A DNA stretch of 32,000 nt from Pirellula staleyi DSM 6068 (GTDB lineage Bacteria; Planctomycetota; Planctomycetia; Pirellulales; Pirellulaceae), in the NCBI GenBank assembly GCA_000025185.1, contig CP001848.1, positions 4,050,001-4,082,000 of the forward strand, given 5' to 3'. Made by a program: the position numbers and the translations under genes. Numbering within the stretch: the first letter of the stretch is position 1; each line of letters starts with the position of its first letter. This document shows positions 3,526-13,826 of the stretch, in pieces. The notes under the pieces are model-generated. The model was not told the DNA's origin, ran no database searches, and saw only the letters and a list, made by a program, of their open reading frames with translations.

Positions 3526-4893
3526 GTGGCAGAGTTCATCAACGTTGAGTTCCTCTCACGAGTCTTCGCACCACTCGGATGGTCGTTTGCGCCTGGCTCC
3601 ATCTGGGGTTACGTGCTGGCGGCTGCCATCCACATCGGCCTACTGATTCAAGTAGTCGCCGTCGGTGCCCTCGTCTTCATCTGGATGGAACGTAAGATCG
3701 CCGGTCGTATCCAAGACCGCCTCGGTCCTACTCGCGTCGGTGGTAAGTTCGGCTGGCTGCAGACTTTAGCCGACGGTCTGAAGCTGATTGCCAAGGAAGA
3801 CGTGACCCCCAAGGACGCCGATCGGCTCCTCTTCAAACTGGCTCCCTACGTCAGCTTCGCGGCCAGTTTCACCGCCTACATGGCTCTCCCATTCTCGAGC
3901 GGCTGGGTCGCTCAAGATGTAAACATTGGCGTGTTCTTTATCGTGGCTGTCCTTGGACTTGAAGTGTTTGGCGTGATTCTCGCCGGATACGCTTCGGGGT
4001 CAAAATGGTCCCTCTTCGGTGGCATGCGTGAAGCAGCCCAAGTGGTGAGCTACGAAGTTCCAATCGGCATGTGCATCGTGATCCCCGTGGTGATCCTCGG
4101 AACGATGAACCTGGTAACGATTGGCGATATGCAAGCTGGCTGGTTCACGAACTGGCTCATCTTCAACGATCCCTTTACCTTCGCAGTCTTTTTTGTCTAC
4201 TTCACCTGTGCTACGGCCAGCGTGAATCGTGCCCCGTTTGACTTGGCGGAAGCTGAAAGCGAACTTGTGGCCGGTTTCCATACGGAATACTCCGGTCTTC
4301 GCTGGAGCTTCTTCTTCATGGCCGAATACGGCTCGATGTTCCTCGTCAGCGGCCTCGCTGCGATTCTGTTCTTCGGCGGTTGGAACGGCCCGATTCCCCT
4401 GTTTGGCCCCGAGATGCTCGGCTGGGCCTACACCCCCGAGTCGACCAGTTGGTCGATCCTCGGCTACATCGCGACCCTCGCAGGTTGCGTCAACTTCATT
4501 GGCAAAACCGTGCTGTTTGTCACCGTCATGATGTGGGTTCGCTGGACACTGCCACGCCTCCGCATCGACCAAGTGATGACCGTCTGTCTTAAATACTGCG
4601 TTCCACTGGCTGCTTTCTGCTTCATCGGAGCTGTGGCTTGGCGTTTGCTGGAACTGCCGACCCCATCAGACATTGCGTTTCTGAAGCATCATCCCCAAGG
4701 GCGTGCCGCCATCCGCGAAGGTTGGATCATGGAGCAAGCCCGAATTGATGCAACGAAAGCAGCCGCTGCTAAGCCCGAAGAACCTGCCGAGAAACCTGCG
4801 GAAGCTCCTGCCGCTGAAGCTGAAAAAGCTGCTGCCGCCACCGAGCCTGCTGCTCGCGAAGCTGCTGTGCTGGTGAAGGAGGTGGCCCGATGA
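3526..4893 (+). CDS. nuoH: NADH-quinone oxidoreductase subunit H (complex I membrane arm) with a ~77-aa C-terminal Ala/Glu/Pro/Lys-rich tail
   Basis: GTG start. Motifs 'MERKIAGRIQDRLGPTRVG', 'GWLQTLADGLKLI', 'APFDLAEAESELVAGFHTEYSG' and 'LPRLRIDQVM' are diagnostic for NuoH/ND1. The stop overlaps the nuoJ start (ATGA at 4890-4893). Confidence 0.93.
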   Translation: MAEFINVEFLSRVFAPLGWSFAPGSIWGYVLAAAIHIGLLIQVVAVGALVFIWMERKIAGRIQDRLGPTRVGGKFGWLQTLADGLKLIAKEDVTPKDADRLLFKLAPYVSFAASFTAYMALPFSSGWVAQDVNIGVFFIVAVLGLEVFGVILAGYASGSKWSLFGGMREAAQVVSYEVPIGMCIVIPVVILGTMNLVTIGDMQAGWFTNWLIFNDPFTFAVFFVYFTCATASVNRAPFDLAEAESELVAGFHTEYSGLRWSFFFMAEYGSMFLVSGLAAILFFGGWNGPIPLFGPEMLGWAYTPESTSWSILGYIATLAGCVNFIGKTVLFVTVMMWVRWTLPRLRIDQVMTVCLKYCVPLAAFCFIGAVAWRLLELPTPSDIAFLKHHPQGRAAIREGWIMEQARIDATKAAAAKPEEPAEKPAEAPAAEAEKAAAATEPAAREAAVLVKEVAR

Positions 4894-6002
4894 ACCTCGC
4901 CGCTCAATCGATCTCCTCCATGATTCCGCTCGACTCGCTTCTGCTCGCCTCGGTCAACTGGCACAGCACACTGTTTGTTCTGTTCGCGCTCCTGGCGTGT
5001 GGCTTCGCCATCGCTGTGGCAGCCAGCAGCAACATTGTGCGGATGGCTTTTTACCTCACACTTTCGCTCGGCGCTACCTCGGGGCTCTTCTTCCTCGCTG
5101 GAGCAGAATTCGTCGGCGCGATGCAGCTGATGATCTACGTCGGCGGAACCCTCGTTCTGCTGATCTTCGGCGTCATGCTCACCGCACAAGCTCGCTTCGT
5201 CTCGATGCAAACATCGGCTGGCGAATGGGTTCTGGCAGCAGTACTCGGCAGCTCACTCTTGCTGCTCCTGTTCCGCTCAGCCCTGGGCGTCCCATCTTGG
5301 ACCACTCCCCGCCCCGATCCTGAGAACGTCGTCCTGGCCGATGCCCACACCAGTACCGAAATCGGCACTGCCCTCGCTGGTGTTCGCGTCGACAAGCTCG
5401 AGCAAGCTAACGAAGCTTTGATACCCGGCATGGCTGGCTACCTGATGCCCTTCGTAGTCATCTCGATGCACCTGCTCGTCGTTTTGATCGGTGCCGGTTA
5501 CATGGCCCGTACGAAGCGTGCTCGCTCGAAGTCTTCCTATCTTTACTCGCCTGCCCATCCGCAAGCTTCCTTGCGGAAGTGGAGTTTCCCGATTCTCGGG
5601 GGACTCGCTTCGGCTGGACTCGTAAATGCAGCCCTCGCAGTCGTTGCCTTTTCGCTCGCTTCGGGATCAGTTTCAGCCTCCGCTGACGACCCCTCAGCGC
5701 CAGCCAAGGCGATTGCTGCCGTTAACGGAATTTTTGCTTCGTCTCCCGCTTGGCTGTTGCCAATTCTCGGACTTCTGTTCGCCCTCAACGTACTCCTCGC
5801 CATTGTCACTTATTTGTGGCAAAAGTGGGGCGCTGTGGGACTAGTAGTGGTTCCCGTACTGATTGGCGTCCTGCTCGTAAGTGGTGGTGTGGTGAGCTGG
5901 GTTGCTGCGGCTATTGCCGTCGCACTGCTGGCTCCCGCCGCAATGCTGGTGGCACTCCTCTGTGCGACTGGCAAACCAACCGCTTGGGAATTGATGGAAT
6001 AA
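4890..6002 (+). CDS. nuoJ: NADH-quinone oxidoreductase subunit J with a ~160-aa C-terminal membrane extension
   Basis: The first ~210 aa align by eye with NuoJ/ND6: 'NIVRMAFYLTLSLGATSGLFFLAGAEFVGAMQLMIYVGGTLVLLIFGVML' and 'YLMPFVVISMHLLVVLIGAGYMAR'. The remainder is four hydrophobic segments with no NuoJ counterpart. Confidence 0.85.
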   Translation: MNLAAQSISSMIPLDSLLLASVNWHSTLFVLFALLACGFAIAVAASSNIVRMAFYLTLSLGATSGLFFLAGAEFVGAMQLMIYVGGTLVLLIFGVMLTAQARFVSMQTSAGEWVLAAVLGSSLLLLLFRSALGVPSWTTPRPDPENVVLADAHTSTEIGTALAGVRVDKLEQANEALIPGMAGYLMPFVVISMHLLVVLIGAGYMARTKRARSKSSYLYSPAHPQASLRKWSFPILGGLASAGLVNAALAVVAFSLASGSVSASADDPSAPAKAIAAVNGIFASSPAWLLPILGLLFALNVLLAIVTYLWQKWGAVGLVVVPVLIGVLLVSGGVVSWVAAAIAVALLAPAAMLVALLCATGKPTAWELME

Positions 6003-6076
6003 GGTGTAGACCAAACCTGCATGCGGAAGTGAATCGCACGATTCTCCTCCGCCAGGCTTTTGAGTAACGACGAATC

Positions 6077-6412
6077 ATGAATCCATTCACGCAACCACTC
6101 ACTGTGTCGCACTACTTGCTAGTCGGCGCGGTGCTATTTGTCACGGGCGTGATCTGCATGGCCACCAAGCGCAACGCGCTCGGGGTGCTGATGGGGATCG
6201 AGCTTGTGCTCAACGGCGCGAACATTAACTTCGTCGCCTTTGGTAGTCGATTTTTTCGCAGCGAATCGCTCGGCCTCGATGGCGAGCTGATGGCATTGTT
6301 TGTCATCGTTTTGGCTGCAGCTGAGGCCGCCGTCGCACTTGCGATTGCCCTCAACTTCTACAACAACCATTCCACGATCGACGTGGATCAAGCCGACGAG
6401 TTGAAGGGCTGA
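6077..6412 (+). CDS. nuoK: NADH-quinone oxidoreductase subunit K
   Basis: 111 aa, three TM segments. 'LMGIELVLNGANINFVAF' and 'VIVLAAAEAAVALAIAL' with the C-terminal '...DELKG' match NuoK/ND4L. The stop overlaps the nuoL start by 1 nt (TGATG). Confidence 0.9.
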   Translation: MNPFTQPLTVSHYLLVGAVLFVTGVICMATKRNALGVLMGIELVLNGANINFVAFGSRFFRSESLGLDGELMALFVIVLAAAEAAVALAIALNFYNNHSTIDVDQADELKG

Positions 6413-9400
6413 TGGAACCGTCACTGCTTCCGTACATCCTGCTGCTCGCGGTAGTCCTGCCGCTGGCGTCATTCTTCACCATCCTGCTATTTGCCAACCA
6501 ACTTGGCAAAATGGCGGCCTGGATCGCTACCGGTGCGATCGCGAGTGCGGCAATCTTGTCGTTCTTGGCGATGTTCGGCATCTGGCTACCGAACCACTGG
6601 CCCGCCAGCAGTTCGCACCATGGCCATGCCGAGCATGGTGAAGCCGATCACCATGACGAGCATCATGGCGAAGGTGAACATGGCGACGAACATCACGGCG
6701 AAAAGCCACACGGCGATGCCAAGCCTGCAGGCGAAAAACATGCTGCCACCGAGGGGCTTGTGGTTCGCCCAGCCGCTTACTTGGTCGAAGAAGCCAAGCC
6801 TGCTGAAGCCAAAGCCGACGCTCACAAGGCTGAAGAGCACAAAACCGAGCACGCCGCCGCAGGTCACACTCATAGCGAGCATGGCGACGAGGACCACAGT
6901 CATGACAATCACGCGCACGCCGAAGGTCCAATCACTTACTCAGGCGAATACTACCTGCTCGGTAAGTTTGGCAATCTGCGGATGTCGATCAGCTACTACA
7001 TCGACGCTCTGACGATCAGCATGTTCTGCATGGTTACGCTCATTGCCACCTGTATCCATTTCTACGCGATGGGATACATGCACGATGAACTCGCCCCCAT
7101 CACCGATAAAGAAGTCACCCTCAGCAATGGCAAGACGCTCCGTCGTCCTGGCCGCTTTCCACGATTCTTCCAAGCTCTGTCGCTCTTCTGCTTCAGCATG
7201 CTTGGGCTCGTGCTCTCCGGCAACATTGCGATGGTCTTCTGCTTCTGGGAACTGGTCGGCATCTGCTCGTGGTTCCTGATCGGGTTCTACATCGAACGCA
7301 ACAGTGCCTCGACAGCCGCGAACAAAGCATTCATCGCCAACCGCGTTGGCGACTTCGGCATGATCATCGGTCTGATGGCTCTCTGGGCCAGCCTTGGCAC
7401 CTTTGCCTTCGGTGACATCGATCTCGATGGAGACAAAACGGTCACCTCGATCGAACAAGGGATCTTCAGCAAGGTTCGTCCTGCGTCGACCGGACATACT
7501 CTCGAAGTTCCAGCCGCTATGGTCGAGTTTTCGGCCCGCGATAAAGTGGCTGCGATTGTTCTCGATCACGTCAAATCGGGCGGATCCGTGGAAGATAGCT
7601 CTTCCGAAGTAGCGGCTCAGGTTCCTCTGTGGCGAAGCGAAGGTTTTGGCTACGGCCTGCTAGTCGTCGCTGGACTCGGTATCTTCTGCGGTTGTGTGGG
7701 TAAATCGGCCCAGTTCCCGCTGCATGTCTGGCTCCCCGACGCGATGGAAGGTCCCACCCCGGTTTCAGCCCTCGTGCACTCGGCGACGATGGTGGCTGCT
7801 GGCGTCTATTTGGTCGGCCGCTTCTATCCCGTCTTTCCACCAGAAACCCTCCTGGTGATCGCTTCGGTTGGTTGCATCACGCTCTTCATTGGAGCCACGA
7901 TTGCCATCACCGCCACCGATATTAAGCGGGTCCTTGCGTACTCGACGATCAGCCAACTGGGCTACATGATGCTCGCGCTCGGTGTTGGTGGTTGGGCTGC
8001 TGGCCTGGCTCACTTGGTCACCCACGCGTTCTTCAAGAGCCTCCTCTTCATGTGCTCAGGTTCGGTGATTCACGCCGTTCACACCAACGACATGCGTCGC
8101 ATGGGTGGCCTGATTAAGAAAATGCCGATCACCGCCCTGACGATGCTCATCGGCTGCCTCGCCATCGCTGGCTGCGGCGTCCCCTTCATCATCGGCTTCA
8201 GCGGCTACTATTCGAAGGATGCGATCCTCGAGCAGGCCTATTCGCTGGCGACAGTCAACGGAACCGCCTCTTCGAGCATCTTCTTCCTAGCTGCCACTGG
8301 CGGTGCCGCAATCACAGCGTTCTACATGTTCCGCATGTGGTTCCTGACTTTTGTCGGCAAGCCTCGCGATCAAGAAGCGTACGATCACGCCCATGAATCT
8401 CCCCCTGTGATGTTCATGCCGCTGGTGATCCTCTCGGTCTTCGCGATCAGCATCGCGTGGAACATCAACCTCATCGGCTTCGGACTCGTCGCTGCCGCCT
8501 TCTTCATCGTGAAGGGTGTGCAAGATGGCTGGTTCAAATCGCTCTCGGCACAACTGGCTGCTGCGGGGCACGACGATCATGCCCATGGCGATCATGGAAA
8601 CGATTCGCATGCTGATCATGGTCACGACAATCACGGTCATGGCGAACATGGCCACGATGAGCACTCGCATGATGACCACGGTCATGCAGCGAGCCACGCT
8701 CATCACGATGATCACGGCCATCAGGAACATGGGCATGGTGATCACGGTCATGATGCACACGACGATCACGGCCATGATCATGCCCACGCTGGCCATCATG
8801 GCGGCGGAGAGTGGCAAGGTCTTTCGTGGGCCTGGGTCGGTACGATGCTCGCTTGCTCGGTGATCGGCGGTCTCCTGATCCAGCCGCTAGTTCCCAGCAC
8901 AAAGCTCGACACGCTCAACCTCACCGACCTGCTCGAACAAGCTCGCCCAGCAGGTACCTTGTCGGCGATGAAGGGACAGTGGATCGGCTGGACTTGGCCC
9001 AACGAACACGACAGCCACGTCGCTGCCATTAAGGTTCCTGTCACGTTGATGGCTACCGGCACCTGGATTGGCGGCATCCTGCTCGCCTCGATGATCTACT
9101 GGTTTGGTTACCTCAAGGCTGAAGATGCTCGCCGTCAGTTTGCTTACCTCTATTCACTCCTGGTGAACAAGTGGTACTTCGACGAGCTCTACGCTTTCAT
9201 TTTTGTTAAACCGACGCTGGTGTTGTCGAAGGTATTCTCGGGACTCGACAAAAACTACATCGATAAATTCCTCGACGGCGTCGCCACGACGACTGTCGGG
9301 TTCTCGAAGCGTTTTGAATTTGTAGCCGATCGCACCATCGTCGACGGCCTGGTGAATGTGCTGGCGGGGTGGTGCTATGCCACAGGTCTCTCGCTCAAGA

Positions 9401-9519
9401 GCGTGCAGACTGGAAAGCTCCGTCAGTACGTGATGTTCATCGTGGTCGGAGCGGTGGCTGTGTTCGTCGTGATCAGCTTTTTCTGGAGCCCCAGCATCGC
9501 GGGTGTGACCGGAAAGTAG
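6412..9519 (+). CDS. nuoL: NADH-quinone oxidoreductase subunit L (1035 aa) with two His-rich insertions
   Basis: Antiporter-like core 'HVWLPDAMEGPTPVSALVHSATMVAAGVYL', 'AYSTISQLGYMMLALG' and 'HLVTHAFFKSLLFMCSG'. The C-terminal lateral-helix region 'NKWYFDELYAFIFVKP...IVDGLVNVLA...LQTGKLRQYV' plus a final TM is typical of NuoL. Confidence 0.9.
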   Translation: MEPSLLPYILLLAVVLPLASFFTILLFANQLGKMAAWIATGAIASAAILSFLAMFGIWLPNHWPASSSHHGHAEHGEADHHDEHHGEGEHGDEHHGEKPHGDAKPAGEKHAATEGLVVRPAAYLVEEAKPAEAKADAHKAEEHKTEHAAAGHTHSEHGDEDHSHDNHAHAEGPITYSGEYYLLGKFGNLRMSISYYIDALTISMFCMVTLIATCIHFYAMGYMHDELAPITDKEVTLSNGKTLRRPGRFPRFFQALSLFCFSMLGLVLSGNIAMVFCFWELVGICSWFLIGFYIERNSASTAANKAFIANRVGDFGMIIGLMALWASLGTFAFGDIDLDGDKTVTSIEQGIFSKVRPASTGHTLEVPAAMVEFSARDKVAAIVLDHVKSGGSVEDSSSEVAAQVPLWRSEGFGYGLLVVAGLGIFCGCVGKSAQFPLHVWLPDAMEGPTPVSALVHSATMVAAGVYLVGRFYPVFPPETLLVIASVGCITLFIGATIAITATDIKRVLAYSTISQLGYMMLALGVGGWAAGLAHLVTHAFFKSLLFMCSGSVIHAVHTNDMRRMGGLIKKMPITALTMLIGCLAIAGCGVPFIIGFSGYYSKDAILEQAYSLATVNGTASSSIFFLAATGGAAITAFYMFRMWFLTFVGKPRDQEAYDHAHESPPVMFMPLVILSVFAISIAWNINLIGFGLVAAAFFIVKGVQDGWFKSLSAQLAAAGHDDHAHGDHGNDSHADHGHDNHGHGEHGHDEHSHDDHGHAASHAHHDDHGHQEHGHGDHGHDAHDDHGHDHAHAGHHGGGEWQGLSWAWVGTMLACSVIGGLLIQPLVPSTKLDTLNLTDLLEQARPAGTLSAMKGQWIGWTWPNEHDSHVAAIKVPVTLMATGTWIGGILLASMIYWFGYLKAEDARRQFAYLYSLLVNKWYFDELYAFIFVKPTLVLSKVFSGLDKNYIDKFLDGVATTTVGFSKRFEFVADRTIVDGLVNVLAGWCYATGLSLKSVQTGKLRQYVMFIVVGAVAVFVVISFFWSPSIAGVTGK
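6616..6918 (+). repeat. Low-complexity His/Glu/Asp/Gly coding region (NuoL insertion 1)
   Basis: aa 69-100 'HHGHAEHGEADHHDEHHGEGEHGDEHHGEKPH' has 12 His in 32 residues. aa 137-169 'HKAEEHKTEHAAAGHTHSEHGDEDHSHDNHAHA' has 10 His in 33. The DNA shows iterated CAY-GGN / GAR-CAY units. Confidence 0.7.
8569..8799 (+). repeat. Cryptic short-period coding repeat (GAY-CAY-GGN-CAY) encoding a 77-aa block with 31 His (NuoL insertion 2)
   Basis: Translation is 'HDDHAHGDHGNDSHADHGHDNHGHGEHGHDEHSHDDHGHAASHAHHDDHGHQEHGHGDHGHDAHDDHGHDHAHAGHH'. Repeated gatcacggtcat / gatcatggc strings are visible in the DNA. Confidence 0.75.
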
Positions 9520-9647
9520 TGATCGCAAACGATTCGCTGGTCGGAGGACGAGCGGATCGAGATTGAGTCGTACAACCAGATTGAGAACGGGTGTCGCACG
9601 GTGAACCATCGGCGACACGTTAGTCTATCGACGGGAACTTGGTCATC

Positions 9648-11759
9648 ATGTCCGATCCTTCAGTGCTGCTGCTCACCGCAATCGTGTTTCTGCCGGCTCT
9701 TTCGGCGATCCTGATTGCTTTGCTCCCCAGCAACAAGCCCGACCTCATCCGTTTCGTCACGCTCGGTGTCACCATTGCGGTGCTCATCCTGACCGTGCTC
9801 GGATTGATGGATCCGCTGGGGTGGCAGGCTTCGACAAAGTTCGATGTTGCTCAGGCCGAGATGCAAAGCGCGTTTAACGTCGCCTGGATCCCATCGTTCG
9901 ACATCGAGTATTTCATGGGTATGGACGGCATCAGCTTTCCGCTGGTGATGCTCACTGCCTTTGTCAGCGTGCTGGCGATGGGAGCTAGTTGGTCGATCAC
10001 CAAGGCCGTGAAGGGCTACTGCATTCTCTTCCTGCTGCTCGAAACCGGCATGCTCGGCGTGTTCCTCGCGCTCGACTTTTTCCTGTTCTACGTGTTCTGG
10101 GAAGTGATGCTCCTCCCGATGTACTTTCTCATCGGCGTCTGGGGTGGTCCTCGCAAGGAATACGCAGCTATCAAGTTTTTCCTCTACACTTTGGCTGGTA
10201 GCGTGCTGATGCTCGTCGCCATCCTGATGCTTTACTTCAGCAGCGATCTCCGGGTTCTGTCGGATGAATATCTGGCCGGTTCGCCCGCCGATCGTCCGAT
10301 CCGCTGGTCCGAAATGAAACTGGGTGATTCGGTCAATGCAAAACTCGGTGCTGCTCCCTACGTCGCTTCCGACAGCACAACTCCTTCGCTGCTGGTGTTC
10401 CGTCGTGGTGCCGAAAGCACCTTGCCACTCACGGTGAAGTTTGCCGCTGGTCCTTCAGCCGCTGCTTACGACCAAGCCAACTCAACGGTCACCATCACGG
10501 TCCCCGCTGAGACCAGCACCGCCAAAGCTGCTGCCGAAGCAGTCGCCGCCGCTGGCGACTCGCTAAAGGAAGTGATCGCGGTCCGTCCCACGGCTGACGA
10601 TGCCCCGATCGCGGCTGGTGATTCGCTTGAAATCGCCCCTTATAACCCAGCGACTCCGGTCCACTCGTTCAATTTGCTCGCCCTCGCCGCCATGGGGCAG
10701 CACACCACGCTGTTCGACGGCGAGATCCTCGGTCAGTCGTTGCAATGGTGGGCGTTCATCCTGCTGTTCATCGGCTTCATCATCAAAGTCCCCTCGGTAC
10801 CGTTTCACACGTGGCTTCCTGATGCTCACGTGGAAGCTCCCACACCGATCTCGATGATCCTGGCTGGCGTGCTGCTGAAGATGGGTGGCTACGGCATCAT
10901 TCGCATCTGCTACCCCATCTGTCCCGCTGGTGGCTACGAGCTCATGTATCTCGTCTGCACGCTCGGCGTCGTCAGCATGGTGTACGGCGCGTTCGCGGCC
11001 CTGGCCCAAAAAGACTTCAAGCGAATGGTGGCCTATTCGTCGGTCAGCCACATGGGCTACGTCACGCTTGGTCTGGGTGTTTGGTCGGCAACGGCTGGCA
11101 ACTACTACAACGCCGACTACTGGAACATGGGTGTTCAAGGGGCGATGTTCCAGATGATTGGCCACGGCGTCAGCTCGGCCGGTATGTTCTTTATGGTCGG
11201 TATCATCTACGACCGCGTGCATCACCGTAACCTCGAAGAATTCGGTGGCCTGTTCGGCAAAATGCCGGTCTACACCGCGATGGCAATGGGGCTCTTCTTT
11301 GCTGCACTCGGTCTTCCCGGTCTCTGCGGATTCCCCGGCGAAGTGTTCGTCGTGTTGTCGGTGTGGAAGTTCAGCATGGTGCTGGCTGTGTTCTCGGCTA
11401 GTGTGGTGATCCTGACAGCCGCCTACATCCTGTGGGCGATGCAGCGGGTTTATCTTGGTGCCGAATACAAGGGTCCGCATGGCGACCACCTGCATCCCAC
11501 AAACCTTCGCGAAAACATGATCGGCTTCACGCTGCTAGTGTTCGCGATCATCTTCGGTGTGTTTCCTTACACCGTGCTGCAGTACATGGAAAAGACGATC
11601 ACGCGTCAGGTGAATGATTTGGCCGCCTGGACCCGCGATGTGAAAGAAAAAGATCTCGTTCCACCAGCTACGACCGAGGAACCAGCAGCCACTTCGCAAG
11701 TCATCCCCACTCCAGCTGGAGTCGAGGAAAAGGCTTCGGCCGAAGTTGCTGGTGGCTAG
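9648..11759 (+). CDS. nuoM: NADH-quinone oxidoreductase subunit M with a ~135-aa loop insertion
   Basis: The ORF opens at TTG 9639; ATG 9648 (MSDPSVLLL...) is preferred. Motifs 'FHTWLPDAHVEAPTPISMILAGVLLKMGGYG', 'AYSSVSHMGYVTLG' and 'MFQMIGHGVSSAGMFF' are diagnostic for NuoM/ND4. Confidence 0.9.
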   Translation: MSDPSVLLLTAIVFLPALSAILIALLPSNKPDLIRFVTLGVTIAVLILTVLGLMDPLGWQASTKFDVAQAEMQSAFNVAWIPSFDIEYFMGMDGISFPLVMLTAFVSVLAMGASWSITKAVKGYCILFLLLETGMLGVFLALDFFLFYVFWEVMLLPMYFLIGVWGGPRKEYAAIKFFLYTLAGSVLMLVAILMLYFSSDLRVLSDEYLAGSPADRPIRWSEMKLGDSVNAKLGAAPYVASDSTTPSLLVFRRGAESTLPLTVKFAAGPSAAAYDQANSTVTITVPAETSTAKAAAEAVAAAGDSLKEVIAVRPTADDAPIAAGDSLEIAPYNPATPVHSFNLLALAAMGQHTTLFDGEILGQSLQWWAFILLFIGFIIKVPSVPFHTWLPDAHVEAPTPISMILAGVLLKMGGYGIIRICYPICPAGGYELMYLVCTLGVVSMVYGAFAALAQKDFKRMVAYSSVSHMGYVTLGLGVWSATAGNYYNADYWNMGVQGAMFQMIGHGVSSAGMFFMVGIIYDRVHHRNLEEFGGLFGKMPVYTAMAMGLFFAALGLPGLCGFPGEVFVVLSVWKFSMVLAVFSASVVILTAAYILWAMQRVYLGAEYKGPHGDHLHPTNLRENMIGFTLLVFAIIFGVFPYTVLQYMEKTITRQVNDLAAWTRDVKEKDLVPPATTEEPAATSQVIPTPAGVEEKASAEVAGG

Positions 11760-11867
11760 TTTGGGCAGCCTAGTTTTTGCGAGTGGATCCTCAGCGACTC
11801 ACTCTTCCTCAAACTGCCCCGAGCATCGAGAACAAGCGTAGCCAGAAATAGTCAGAAAGAGTTTGCC

Positions 11868-13826
11868 GTGAACCTAAACGACCTTATTAGCCAGTTGGTG
11901 ATCGACACCAAGGGCTCGCCCGAAGCGAGCTTCTTCTCGATCGCTGCTGACTCCAGCTTGAGGCCGTTCTTTCCCGAGCTGATCCTCTGCCTCACCGTGC
12001 TGCTGATGCTTTTGGTGCGGCTGTTCAAGGTGGGGCGTTCGGTCAATGCCTCGTGGATCGCCATCGCTGGCTCCGCTGCTGCGCTCTATTTTTGTGCTCC
12101 TTGGGAACACCTCGGCGCGGCACTTTCGGTGGAAGCAGCGGCTGATCCTGCCGCGATCACCCGGATGGAACTCTTCACCGGCATGCTCGTGGTCGACACC
12201 TTCTCGGTTTACGTCCGCAGCTTGCTCCTGCTCTTCTCGGTCCTGTTTGTGATCTTCACGATGCTCTCGGGCATTCCGGATCACGAAGATGGCCCCGACG
12301 TTTACGCCCTGATCCTCGGTAGCACGATTGGTATGTGCCTGATGGCATCGGCCAATCACTTGCTCACGGTCTTTATGGCCGTCGAAATGGCGTCGGTCCC
12401 TTCCTACGTCTTGGCAGGGCTGATGAAGGGGCGCAAGACCGCCAGCGAAGCAGCTTTGAAATACTCCGTCTATGGTGCCGGCGCCGCAGGCGTGATGCTC
12501 TACGGCATCAGCCTCCTGGCGGGGCTGTTGCACACCGCTCATCTCCCCACGATGGCCACGCAGCTGGCTGCCAAACTTCCTACCATGACCGGTTCGGAAG
12601 TGGTGGTGCTCGCTCTCGCAGGCTTGATGGTGGGAGTTGGTTTGGCTTTCAAATTGTCGGCAGTTCCGTTCCACTTCTGGGCTCCCGACGTGTTCGATGG
12701 TGCGACGGCTGAAGTTAACGCCTTCCTCAGCATTGCCTCAAAGGCAGCTGCTCTCGCGCTTCTGGTTCGCGTTACACTCGGCATTGGCATGGAAGCTCCT
12801 GAATCGGTTCGCCCTGGCGAGCGGACAGCGGCTCTAGCTGCTGCTCCTGCCGAGGATGCCGTCGCGAAGGTTGCGCTTTTCCGCGTCGAAGACGAAGCCC
12901 CTTCGGCCGAAACCAAGCCAGCTGCGGTAGAAGCCGAGCCAGCTCCTCCTGCTGTGGAAACTAAGTCAGCAGAAGAGAAGCCAGAAGCTGCTCCTGCTGC
13001 CGCTGAAGCATCAGCAACTGAAGCACCAGCCGCCGAAACTGCTCCGGAAACATCGTCAGCCGAAATTCCTCACGAAGCGCCAGCAGCACCTGCTGTAAGC
13101 CCGCTTGTGGGTGTGCGAAGCTTTGCCGCCAAGTTGATCGCACTCTTTGCTGTTCTCAGTTGCACGTTTGGTAACTTGGCAGCCTACGGTCAAACGAGCA
13201 TCAAGCGACTGCTGGCCTACTCCACGATTGCCCACGCCGGCTACATGATGATGCCTGTCGCAGCGATGTTGATGATGGCCGACATCAATAATCCCGGTGC
13301 CGAACGAGCCGCTGCATCGCTCGCCGTGTACATGGCCGTTTATATGTTCATGAATCTCGGTGCCTTCGCTGTGATCGCCACGCTCCGCAACGCGATGCGA
13401 AGCGAACAGATCGCCGACTACGCTGGCCTCATTCGCCGCTGCCCTCTCACCGTGATTTGCTTCTCGCTGATCCTGTTCAGCTTGATCGGTTTGCCTCCGC
13501 TGTCGGGCTTCATCGGTAAGTTTGCGATTTTCGCCTCGCTGGCCGAAGGATATCAGTCGGCAGGTCCTGTCGATGGATTCTTCCTCCTCGTGCTGCTGCT
13601 AGTCGGCGGTTTGAACACGGCGATCAGCCTGTTCTATTACCTCCGCCTCGTGAAAATCATGACGATCGACGAAGAGCCGAAAGATCGTCGTCCATTCACC
13701 TTCTCCGACGTGTCGATCTCGGGTGCCTACCTTTGGCTCCTGACGCTTCCCACCGTCGGGCTGATCATTAACTGGAACGGTCTCAACGAGATGGCGTTGG
13801 CTGCTGCCCGCTACTTGTTCAACTAA
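11868..13826 (+). CDS. nuoN: NADH-quinone oxidoreductase subunit N with a ~110-aa Ala/Glu/Pro-rich insertion
   Basis: GTG start. 'FMAVEMASVPSYVLAG', 'PFHFWAPDVFDGATAEVNAFLSIASKAAA' and 'LLAYSTIAHAGYMM' match NuoN/ND2. It is the last gene of the block. Confidence 0.9.
   Translation: MNLNDLISQLVIDTKGSPEASFFSIAADSSLRPFFPELILCLTVLLMLLVRLFKVGRSVNASWIAIAGSAAALYFCAPWEHLGAALSVEAAADPAAITRMELFTGMLVVDTFSVYVRSLLLLFSVLFVIFTMLSGIPDHEDGPDVYALILGSTIGMCLMASANHLLTVFMAVEMASVPSYVLAGLMKGRKTASEAALKYSVYGAGAAGVMLYGISLLAGLLHTAHLPTMATQLAAKLPTMTGSEVVVLALAGLMVGVGLAFKLSAVPFHFWAPDVFDGATAEVNAFLSIASKAAALALLVRVTLGIGMEAPESVRPGERTAALAAAPAEDAVAKVALFRVEDEAPSAETKPAAVEAEPAPPAVETKSAEEKPEAAPAAAEASATEAPAAETAPETSSAEIPHEAPAAPAVSPLVGVRSFAAKLIALFAVLSCTFGNLAAYGQTSIKRLLAYSTIAHAGYMMMPVAAMLMMADINNPGAERAAASLAVYMAVYMFMNLGAFAVIATLRNAMRSEQIADYAGLIRRCPLTVICFSLILFSLIGLPPLSGFIGKFAIFASLAEGYQSAGPVDGFFLLVLLLVGGLNTAISLFYYLRLVKIMTIDEEPKDRRPFTFSDVSISGAYLWLLTLPTVGLIINWNGLNEMALAAARYLFN

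Follow-up and report, generated by a model that had tools for sequence, protein, structure and literature searches.

Complex I subunit L (NuoL) is among the most conserved membrane proteins known. Among the closest described counterparts of the variant reported here is the Paracoccus denitrificans Nqo12/ND5 subunit, which carries a mildly His/Glu-rich insertion between TMH14 and TMH15 (PDB 8QBY; PMC11522691), and the loop between these helices is periplasmic in the solved Paracoccus complex I (PMC11522691). Loops of the (HX)n type, with histidines spaced by Asp, Glu, Gly or Ser, are found in CDF/ZnT and ZIP metal transporters, where they are disordered and cytosolic and lie between two TM helices, as between TM4 and TM5 of hZnT7 and in AtMTP1 (PMC10409766). 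The loops of ZnT7 and AtMTP1 bind Zn2+, and loops of this type take up several Zn2+ ions, vary in length between homologues and tune transport up or down (PMC10409766). Low-complexity segments with a comparable His fraction, often on an abundant housekeeping protein, are also known from Hpn, the HypB N-terminus, the UreE, SlyD and CooJ tails and the mycobacterial GroEL1 tail (PMC5312948, PMC10170517); these are soluble termini, often tied to Ni-enzyme maturation. Proton antennae form a further group, with surface clusters of His and carboxylates on proton-translocating proteins such as cytochrome c oxidase and reaction centres and a His cluster in carbonic anhydrase II (PMC5986270), and they consist of ordered residues round a defined channel entrance.

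The window analysed is a stretch of 32,000 nucleotides from Pirellula staleyi DSM 6068. Translation of positions 6412-9519 (+) gives a NuoL of 1035 aa that is 100% identical to the annotated protein. The segment under study, insertion 2, lies between the equivalents of TM14 and TM15:

6412..9519, + strand: nuoL, the distal antiporter-like subunit of complex I, with Pfam Proton_antipo_N and Proton_antipo_M
6604..6936, + strand: insertion 1 (aa 65-175) in the TM2-TM3 loop, with 23 His and AlphaFold2 pLDDT below 50 for aa 72-166
8386..8403, + strand: HAHESP motif (aa 659-664), conserved, where TM14 begins on the cytoplasmic side
8404..8460, + strand: TM14 equivalent (aa 665-683), AlphaFold2 helix 665-680, through which PDB NuoL alignments run; W683 is its periplasmic end
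8464..8523, + strand: extra helix 1 (aa 685-704, hydrophobic core 685-700), AlphaFold2 pLDDT ~88, predicted to run from periplasm to cytoplasm
8530..8565, + strand: short amphipathic helix with a G-W-F-K start (aa 707-718, an AlphaFold2 helix over the same residues)
8569..8799, + strand: His/Asp/Gly block (aa 720-796, HDDHAHGD...HAHAGHH), 77 aa with 31 His, disordered and predicted to be cytoplasmic
8821..8889, + strand: extra helix 2 (aa 804-826), AlphaFold2 helix 806-826 with pLDDT 77-92, predicted to run from cytoplasm to periplasm
8914..9039, + strand: conserved periplasmic loop before TM15 (aa 835-876; LxLxxLLEQARPxGT...WxWPNEHDSH), with L837, E865 and H869 invariant
9040..9105, + strand: TM15 equivalent (aa 877-898), AlphaFold2 helix 871-897, aligning to residues 541-594 of the T. 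elongatus NdhF chain
9172..9483, + strand: lateral helix HL (aa 921-999) and TM16 (aa 1006-1024), in AlphaFold2 a 79-residue helix and then a terminal TM helix

Insertion 2 shares its subunit and loop with the Paracoccus insertion, and the alignment reaches into the latter. The Paracoccus insertion has no extra TM helices, is periplasmic and is far less His-rich, whereas the Pirellula hairpin would shift the loop to the cytoplasmic side. The block matches the (HX)n sequence pattern in its HxH runs and spacings of 2 and 3, with a predicted cytoplasmic location, and is both denser in His (40%) and longer than most CDF/ZIP loops; as a metal binder it is putative. CDF and ZIP hosts are metal transporters with a TM metal site, while NuoL is a proton-pump subunit without a ZIP or CDF domain. 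A cytosolic His-rich loop that is likened to those of CDF and ZIP proteins also occurs in E. coli RcnA. Unlike the Hpn- and HypB-type termini, the Pirellula block sits within the chain of a membrane subunit, as a loop on what appears to be its own TM hairpin, and no genes for hydrogenase or urease lie close by. It resembles the proton antennae in bringing His and carboxylates together on a proton-translocating protein, but is disordered and of variable length. Another parallel is found in Krumholzibacteria and Poribacteria, whose NuoL carries in the same loop a segment rich in His, acidic residues and Ala/Gly, with 7-27 His, that is conserved across the 68 homologues with a delimitable region and is missing from the neighbouring NuoM. 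These loops have no extra TM helices and are therefore periplasmic by canonical topology; the outgroup position of their hosts indicates an independent origin. In the literature searched, there is no description of these His-rich TM14-15 loops, nor of insertion 2 or an 18-TM His-loop NuoL.

The P. staleyi protein is a variant NuoL and not a separate family, with 18 predicted TMs in place of the canonical 16. Its Pfam matches are PF00662 at 4.3e-12 and PF00361 at 2.7e-67, it scores 562.5 bits with the NCBIfam NuoL equivalog NF005141 (cut-off 556) and 536 with TIGR01974 (cut-off 407.5), and Foldseek comparison with NuoL/ND5 chains yields target-normalised TM-scores of 0.70-0.79. Residues E280 (FWELVG), K431 (GKSAQFPLH), H456 (ALVHSATM), K542 (HAFFKSL) and K602-D603 (YSKDAIL) are invariant in 120 homologues. 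By comparison with E. coli NuoL, we take these to be the central proton axis, namely the TM5 Glu, TM7 Lys, TM8 His, TM11 Lys and TM12 Lys-Asp. The cluster order nuoH, nuoJ, nuoK, nuoL, nuoM, nuoN is identical in relatives, and the flanking genes have housekeeping roles (TatD, a thioredoxin-reductase-like protein, an MFS transporter, an aminoacyl-tRNA synthetase, citrate synthase, ArgJ and a distant TerC); genes for metal homeostasis, hydrogenase or urease were not found in this neighbourhood, which offers no hint of what the loop does. Lineage-specific insertions are present in every membrane subunit H, J, L, M and N of P. staleyi complex I. An antisense ORF at 8287-8817 was discarded as an artefact that mirrors the His, Asp and Gly codons.

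Upstream of insertion 2, residues A660, H661, E662, S663 and P664 of the HAHESP motif are invariant across the 120 homologues and H659 is nearly so; W683 is also invariant, at the end of a stretch (VMFMPLVILSVFAISIAW, aa 666-683, nt 8407-8460) within the TM14 equivalent. Downstream, the motifs of the loop before TM15 occur too in relatives without the hairpin, and the TM15 equivalent is VTLMATGTWIGGILLASMIYWF (aa 877-898, nt 9040-9105). The first-pass annotation had described two extra hydrophobic helices around a His-rich block at 8464-8883. This interval encodes aa 685-824, and all of the strings quoted for it were found, with INLIGFGLVAAAFFIV (aa 685-700, nt 8464-8511) as the core of helix 1 and LSWAWVGTMLACSVIGGLLI (aa 804-823, nt 8821-8880) in helix 2. 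The structure prediction that it had called for, run here with AlphaFold2, places helices on both sides of a disordered block, with pLDDT of 77-92 for the two helices. The best 17-residue Hessa sums are +1.1 for helix 1 and +0.4 for helix 2, compared with -2.6 to +4.6 for the canonical TMs of the same protein; the non-hydrophobic helices of insertion 3 score 15-18. Lys and Arg reach a density of 2.06 per 10 aa just after helix 1, against 0.44 in the turn between TM14 and helix 1 and 0.74 after helix 2. Both helices have conserved positions, with G689 in 108, F697 in 91 and K/R701 in 89 of 115 homologues for helix 1, which ends at the conserved K/R701-G702, and W808 in 93, M812 in 88 and G820 in 111 of 115 for helix 2. 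G706, W707 and F708 each recur in 105-106 of the 115 homologues, and the amphipathic helix that they begin (aa 707-718) is probably an interfacial anchor at the cytoplasmic membrane surface. In 5-6 loci, nothing but a short basic linker containing 0-7 His joins the two helices, as in L019 ('FFFVRSGRTGEQRPKVLRTSLAV').

These features make it likely that helix 1 and helix 2 cross the membrane as a hairpin and hold the disordered loop on the cytoplasmic side. We favor this topology because of the TM-like hydrophobicity, the Lys/Arg after helix 1, the relatives with short basic loops and the confident AlphaFold2 helices, and also because the orientation of TM15 must be kept and the whole module is cleanly present or absent. 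The cytoplasmic side of the His loop is suggested by the positive-inside bias, the parity of the TM count and the short-loop variants. The same topology had been proposed in the first-pass annotation, and it is upheld as a structural reading by these indirect sequence and AlphaFold2 lines. In such an arrangement, a tight Asn/Asp/Ser turn after TM14 would lead into transmembrane helix 1, followed on the cytoplasmic face by the interfacial G-W-F-K helix and the strongly acidic His-rich loop, and helix 2 would return the chain to the conserved periplasmic loop ahead of TM15. The hairpin would thus add two TMs and leave the canonical 16-TM topology intact, giving the total of 18 predicted from AlphaFold2 secondary structure and hydrophobicity. 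Its only apparent job would be to present a loop of 40% His to the cytoplasm, which makes this a so far undescribed variant of a known subunit.

The block at aa 720-796 is composed of 31 His, 16 Asp, 13 Gly, 8 Ala, 3 Ser, 3 Glu, 2 Asn and 1 Gln, with neither Lys nor Arg, and pLDDT is below 50 over aa 722-799. Its calculated charge is near -16 at pH 7.5 and near +5 at pH 6.0. The exact count agrees with the 77 residues and 31 histidines noted before. Across the remaining 20 genes of the window, His makes up 1.9% of residues and reaches at most 4 in any 30-aa window, compared with 13 in NuoL, and the probability of at least 31 His in 77 aa is ~8e-33, so chance is excluded as the origin of the block. 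The reported DHGH/HGHD periodicity is also real, with His spacings that alternate between 2 and 3 residues, 13 times each; the pattern is that of a decayed HxHxx pentapeptide. Tandem Repeats Finder detected no DNA tandem repeat of score >=30 in nt 8569-8799, and the His codons are mixed (CAT/CAC 18:13). A search of a 5.8-billion-protein database with the block alone as query returned 668 word-sharing candidates, none of which scored after composition correction.

An architecture of helix 1, His-rich block and helix 2 is common to 115 of the 120 closest NuoL homologues. The whole module is cleanly absent from the other 5 and from about 49 of 80 GTDB loci. It has been lost several times among relatives and some hairpins lack His, so the module must be dispensable. 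Among homologues, the block ranges from 27 to 122 aa and from 7 to 45 His, and hairpins with 0-7 His sit in the basal hairpin-bearing lineages. Two relatives have 15-bp tandem arrays that are always in frame (12.9 copies in L014 and 13.2 in L002, 93% match). Compared with its closest relative, P. staleyi keeps His at 27 of 27 aligned positions, 13 of them by synonymous change. In two species pairs together, 47 of 48 His are kept, 23 via CAT<->CAC exchange, and 23 of 74 spacer residues (31%) are replaced (Fisher p = 3.7e-5). The many synonymous His-codon changes, with a single replacement in 48 against 31% of the spacers, show purifying selection on His rather than neutrality. Slippage-like variation in length with no conservation had been named as grounds for abandoning a functional reading; the length does vary freely, with 15-bp arrays in some lineages, but His identity is strongly conserved. 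A plausible history would begin with the hairpin and a short basic loop, which later lengthened by slippage of a 15-bp (HxHxx) unit, with selection afterwards keeping the histidines and not the spacers or the length.

In structural terms, insertion 2 is probably an accessory module of NuoL that is specific to this lineage. Our preferred reading of its function, to which we assign a probability of only about 0.4, is that the loop serves as a tethered multivalent binder of divalent transition metals (Zn2+, Ni2+, Co2+ and Cu2+), comparable to the His-rich loops of CDF/ZnT, ZIP and RcnA proteins. From the cytoplasmic face of the distal pump module, the loop may take up metal or buffer it, and thereby either protect or modulate the cytoplasm-side proton entry of NuoL, which can be blocked by His/Asp-seeking metals. 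Zn2+ is reported by Sharpley and Hirst in 2006 to inhibit complex I. Neither ZIP nor CDF Pfam matches were found on P. staleyi NuoL; a faint precomputed ZIP match on homologue P0012 speaks for the analogy with ZIP loops but may reflect His-rich composition. NuoL lacks a ZIP/CDF transport site, which means that its loop cannot supply a metal pathway in the way of the ZnT7 loop. Further points against metal binding are the lack of metal-homeostasis genes at the flanks of the nuo cluster, the similar His-rich segment on the periplasmic side in Krumholzibacteria and Poribacteria, and the dispensability of the module. Because the cytoplasm usually keeps free Zn and Ni at very low levels, a loop of low affinity might carry no metal. 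A generic metal sink also leaves unexplained why His richness is limited to NuoL, and not shared by NuoM or NuoN, in the genomes covered from three phyla. The metal site and the proton-buffering antenna of the first-pass annotation are both chemically reasonable, and the present data do not discriminate between them.

As a proton-collecting antenna or local pH buffer, the main alternative and a possible but doubtful role, some 31 imidazoles and 19 carboxylates would form a cloud of a few nanometres that feeds the cytoplasm-side uptake path of NuoL, with the periplasmic His-rich insertion 1 playing the matching part close to the exit. The combination of His and Asp/Glu with few Lys or Arg is that of the classical proton-collecting surface antennae of cytochrome oxidase and reaction-centre work. 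The block has this composition, with almost no Lys/Arg, and the swing of its charge between pH 7.5 and 6.0 fits buffering. His-rich loops are found in NuoL of Planctomycetota, Krumholzibacteria and Poribacteria, on both membrane faces, and are absent from the NuoM and NuoN sequences of the loci examined. NuoL/ND5 has the only clearly hydrated exit cavity, and exit of all four protons there has been proposed (PMC10396290), which also favors an antenna. The known antennae are nonetheless ordered clusters round a channel mouth and not variable disordered loops of 30-120 residues, cytoplasmic proton uptake is thought to be common to all three antiporter-like subunits although the loop is on NuoL only, and hairpins with 0-7 His together with module losses imply that pumping does not require the loop. 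It is unlikely that the hairpin alone has a functional or structural role, for instance in stabilising the distal tip or TM15/HL or in contacts with lipid or a partner, and that the His block is a largely neutral, slippage-driven expansion. The ranges of 27-122 aa and 7-45 His, the arrays of ~13 copies in L014 and L002, the short, His-poor loops of the basal lineages, conserved Gly and aromatic helix positions as expected for specific packing, and insertions in all of the membrane subunits would suit such an origin. It does not explain 40% His in P. staleyi where no DNA repeat is left, the selection on His over spacers, the insertions of NuoM, NuoN and NuoJ, which are not His-rich, or the independent rise of His-rich NuoL loops in other phyla.

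We consider it quite unlikely that His/acid-rich disordered loops are a recurrent NuoL-specific adaptation, acquired independently in Krumholzibacteria, in Poribacteria and in Planctomycetota, there as periplasmic insertion 1 and as insertion 2 brought to the cytoplasm by its hairpin, for proton handling at the terminal pump module, with collection on the cytoplasmic side and exit acceptance or surface retention on the periplasmic side. A pH- or metal-responsive switch is very unlikely. Here the anionic membrane would repel the loop as long as cytoplasmic pH is normal, and acidification or metal would make the loop collapse on the membrane, the start of HL or HAHESP and so tune complex I activity. 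The calculated charge does reverse between pH 7.5 and 6.0, the loop would emerge beside the invariant HAHESP, where TM14 meets the cytoplasm, and on the same face as HL, and the AtMTP1 His loop is a brake on transport (PMC10409766). This proposal is purely inferential, free length variation argues against precise docking, and comparison of homologues found no conserved docking motif within the block. Finally, the extra segments might not span the membrane, leaving the block periplasmic like insertion 1 and the TM14-15 loops of Krumholzibacteria and Poribacteria. Those phyla do have a His-rich segment in this loop without extra helices, and a G-W-F-(S/K) motif follows TM14 in Krumholzibacteria as it follows helix 1 in Pirellula. 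We regard this as highly improbable, as two uniformly hydrophobic helices of 17-23 residues cannot sit in the periplasm, the short-loop variants allow only a helical hairpin, and basic residues cluster on the loop side. A periplasmic His segment also needs no helices, but here the helices and the block come and go as one unit.

If the loop binds metals, as in our preferred reading, it would tie respiration to metal homeostasis or guard the proton channels against Zn-type inhibition. If it handles protons instead, His loops limited to NuoL and not NuoM/N in several phyla would bear on the sites of proton uptake and release in complex I. Should the recurrent form of that idea prove true, the restriction to NuoL would be comparative evidence that this subunit has a particular part in proton exit, for which Pirellula complex I would offer a natural test system. 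Thanks to its native His blocks, planctomycetal complex I should be open to IMAC purification for cryo-EM with no added tag. The natural series of NuoL with no hairpin, with hairpin and short basic loop, and with hairpin and 10-45 His provides ready control constructs.

An origin of the hairpin by internal duplication was tried and rejected, as both helices gave only noise in BLASTP searches against NuoH/J/K/L/M/N (best E = 0.07 in a tiny database). Insertion 1 is a second His-rich segment, predicted to be disordered, in the TM2-TM3 loop that is periplasmic in canonical NuoL. It is found in nearly all Pirellulales-type NuoL, including those without insertion 2.

The nuoL reading frame (window 6412-9519, forward strand) lies in the gene order nuoH-J-K-L-M-N and encodes a protein with 100% identity to the annotated P. 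staleyi DSM 6068 NuoL. Pfam and NCBIfam both assign it to NuoL, with the equivalog model score exceeding its cut-off, and database annotations name the insertion-bearing protein plain NuoL. Across 120 homologues there is no variation in the central-axis residues, namely TM5 Glu, TM7 Lys, TM8 His, TM11 Lys and the Lys-Asp pair of TM12. An AlphaFold2 model built from the 120-sequence alignment (mean pLDDT 76.7, pTM 0.76) contains the canonical TM1-TM14, TM15, a lateral helix of 79 residues and TM16, and Foldseek comparison with solved NuoL/ND5 chains gave target-normalised TM-scores of 0.70-0.79. PDB sequence alignments stop exactly past TM14 and restart at TM15, so insertion 2 sits in the TM14-TM15 connection. 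No description of it was found in the literature searched; the subunit is a known one in a new form, and the system is not of a new kind.

Parts of insertion 2 in the AlphaFold2 model of NuoL (forward strand)
aa 685-704, helix 1, pLDDT about 88
aa 707-718, short amphipathic helix, pLDDT about 69-81
aa 722-799, disordered block, pLDDT below 50
aa 806-826, helix 2, pLDDT 77-92

The first-pass annotation reasoned that the His block would face the cytoplasm if the two hydrophobic segments form a transmembrane hairpin, and we accept this topology on several indirect grounds. The best-17 Hessa sums of helices 1 and 2 (+1.1 and +0.4) match those of canonical TMs of the same protein (-2.6 to +4.6), while the non-hydrophobic helices of insertion 3 in the TM6-TM7 loop score 15-18 by the same measure. 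TM14 and helix 1 are linked by an Asn/Asp/Ser turn of 2-4 residues, which suits a tight helical hairpin. Lys+Arg per 10 residues reaches 2.06 just after helix 1, compared with 0.44 in the turn and 0.74 after helix 2, a peak that reads as the positive-inside signature of a predicted cytoplasmic loop. The spacer between the helices is merely short and basic in some relatives ('FFFVRSGRTGEQRPKVLRTSLAV' in L019, 'MGRFSWS' in L021), and two predicted helices joined in this way can only be compatible with a transmembrane hairpin. Sequences free of the module pass from the invariant Trp closing TM14 directly into the conserved LLEQARPxGT loop: it comes and goes as one unit. TM15 keeps its correct orientation only if the added spans are even in number, as they are here. 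With these lines of sequence and model evidence in agreement, the extra helices probably present the His block to the cytoplasm. In the solved structure from Paracoccus the TM14-TM15 loop itself lies in the periplasm and has its own disordered insertion of 44 residues (PMC11522691). A periplasmic His block in P. staleyi is highly improbable.

All strings quoted in the first-pass annotation occur in NuoL at the positions it gave, and its count of 31 histidines in 77 residues is exact (aa 720-796, nt 8569-8799). The block also holds 16 Asp and 13 Gly, with zero Lys or Arg. The other 20 genes of the window average 1.9% His with at most 4 His per 30-residue window, and a block of this composition has a binomial probability of ~8e-33. 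His-His spacing alternates between 2 and 3 residues, a decayed HxHxx pentapeptide. A search of the P. staleyi block DNA for a tandem repeat found none, and its His codons are mixed (CAT:CAC 18:13). Two long alternative-frame ORFs over the block, 8287-8817 on the reverse strand and 8516-8863 on the forward strand in another frame, were rejected as mirror artefacts. Synonymous-site changes fit the nuoL frame only; the antisense ORF is Met/Val/Ile-rich, being the complement of CAY, GAY and GGY codons.

The 120 closest database homologues are all Pirellulales-type proteins of 737-1061 aa, and 115 carry the module, with blocks of 27-122 aa, 7-45 His and a median of 32% His. The five without it keep the His-rich insertion 1 of the TM2-TM3 loop. 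A GTDB scan with one genome per species provided 80 loci, the top-ranking ones among at least 593 matches and so a biased sample. About 18 have the hairpin with a His block, 5-6 a hairpin whose loop is short, basic and poor in His, and about 49 no hairpin; two are outgroup loci, taken up below, and six could not be delimited. Among the hairpin-free loci are Blastopirellula marina and MAGs that bear the labels Bythopirellula, Aeoliella, Lacipirellulaceae and Thermoguttaceae. On a neighbour-joining tree of 593 core columns, which is without support values, the hairpin is limited to one clade and one small pair apart from it. Forms with a short loop and few histidines are basal branches of that clade, and the top His counts fall in a crown group of Pirellula and Anatilimnocola. 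Hairpin-free sequences nested within the clade indicate several losses of the module. The separate pair (L013 and L054) has both hairpin and His block, and its placement could reflect independent gain, transfer, module recombination or a tree artefact.

Two relatives (L014 and L002) have a block made of some 13 tandem copies of a 15-bp unit at 93% identity, making slippage the likely mechanism of block growth. In L014, positions 74-159 hold another 15-bp array (5.7 copies, 95% match) close to the start of nuoL, roughly where insertion 1 would be; if it is insertion 1, both His-rich insertions would extend by slippage with the same unit length. Between P. staleyi and its closest relative (P0002, DNA in L081), 27 of 27 aligned block histidines are kept, 13 through synonymous CAT<->CAC changes, while spacers are replaced at 13 of 40 positions and gaps occur at 10. 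In a second, independent comparison, Anatilimnocola floriformis (P0012) and a related ENA-assembly genome (P0015) share 20 of 21 histidines (10 synonymous), with 10 of 34 spacers replaced. The pooled difference between His and spacers (Fisher's exact test, p = 3.7e-5) has to be read knowing that low-complexity alignment tends to pair His with His. Even with this bias, histidine identity is constrained with block length and spacers free, which contradicts a purely neutral repeat. The first-pass annotation would have taken a block varying freely in length without conservation as a refutation; only half of this applies, since the length is indeed free but the histidines are retained.

Sequence evidence gives the structural account good support, and a natural series of constructs follows from it; the function of the His loop is conjecture. 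Zn2+ inhibits complex I, and to our knowledge every characterised bacterial His-rich low-complexity segment binds divalent metal. Block chemistry, (HX)n with Asp, Glu, Gly and Ser spacers, and predicted placement, disordered and cytosolic between two TM helices, correspond to those of His loops in ZnT/CDF and ZIP transporters; such loops bind several Zn2+ and tune transport (PMC10409766). On the strength of this likeness and of the metal binding of such segments, we tentatively choose a putative divalent-metal-binding loop with a buffering or decoy role (probability roughly 0.4). The loop would be a tethered binder where the distal pump module faces the cytoplasm, buffering metal or serving as a decoy that keeps metals from binding to His/Asp residues of the proton entry.

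The main rival, a proton-collecting or pH-buffering antenna, would account for NuoL specificity better than metal binding does. The calculated block charge reverses from -16 at pH 7.5 to +5 at pH 6.0, and an antenna fits the proton exit proposed through the ND5 cavity (PMC10396290); known antennae, however, are ordered structures, and we consider this reading unlikely. A structural hairpin whose loop is merely a tolerated expansion is somewhat less likely still, and a regulatory switch sensing pH or metal is improbable. Against all functional readings stand the dispensability of the module in evolution, the hairpins without histidines in some relatives and an uninformative gene neighbourhood.

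His-rich NuoL loops also occur in other lineages. Krumholzibacteria NuoL (L067, L040, P0121-P0240) has a TM14-15 loop rich in His, Glu and Ala (7-27 His) and no extra helices, an arrangement conserved in 68 of 68 homologues where the region is delimitable; its G-W-F-(S/A)-(K/R) motif straight after TM14 resembles the Pirellula G-W-F-K after helix 1. Candidatus Poribacteria NuoL (L065 1618-3843) has His-rich segments in the TM14-15 and TM11-TM12 loops, the latter being HNGSHDDEHEHESEHHETEHHDHG in a loop that should be cytoplasmic; the adjacent NuoM is not His-rich. Nor are the available NuoM, and NuoN where present, in the loci examined. From this, His-rich loops seem to be a NuoL-specific feature that recurs and can lie on either membrane face, an unexplained pattern worth testing.

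Insertion 1 (window 6604-6936, aa 65-175) is disordered and holds 23 His, has pLDDT below 50 for aa 72-166 in AlphaFold2, and lies in a loop on the periplasmic side of canonical NuoL. Almost all Pirellulales-type NuoL carry it, hairpin-free relatives included, and it predates insertion 2 and has a wider distribution; 17 of 21 aligned His are kept in the closest relative. Insertion 3 (window 7420-7647, aa ~337-412) is lineage-specific and not His-rich, with short helices at 376-388 and 393-409. All membrane subunits of P. staleyi complex I are enlarged (window 3526-13826), and NuoM, NuoN and NuoJ have large insertions quite unlike the His-rich loops in composition. The 455-aa NuoH has a C-terminal tail rich in Ala, Glu, Pro and Lys, NuoJ (370 aa) several added hydrophobic segments beyond about aa 230, NuoM (706 aa) an insertion of about 140 aa and NuoN (652 aa) one rich in Ala, Pro and Glu at about aa 310-405; His-rich sequence is absent from all of them. 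The nuoH and nuoJ genes overlap by 4 nt (window 4890-4893) with nuoI not between them, and the closest relative (L081) shares the H-J-K-L-M-N order without nuoI. At the cytoplasmic start of TM14, an HAHESP motif (window 8386-8403, aa 659-664) forms a conserved His cluster adjoining the exit point of the His loop; it is almost invariant in all examined Pirellulales-type, Krumholzibacteria and Poribacteria NuoL, and the equivalent position in T. elongatus NdhF reads 'EHHDHHSHH...PHESP'.
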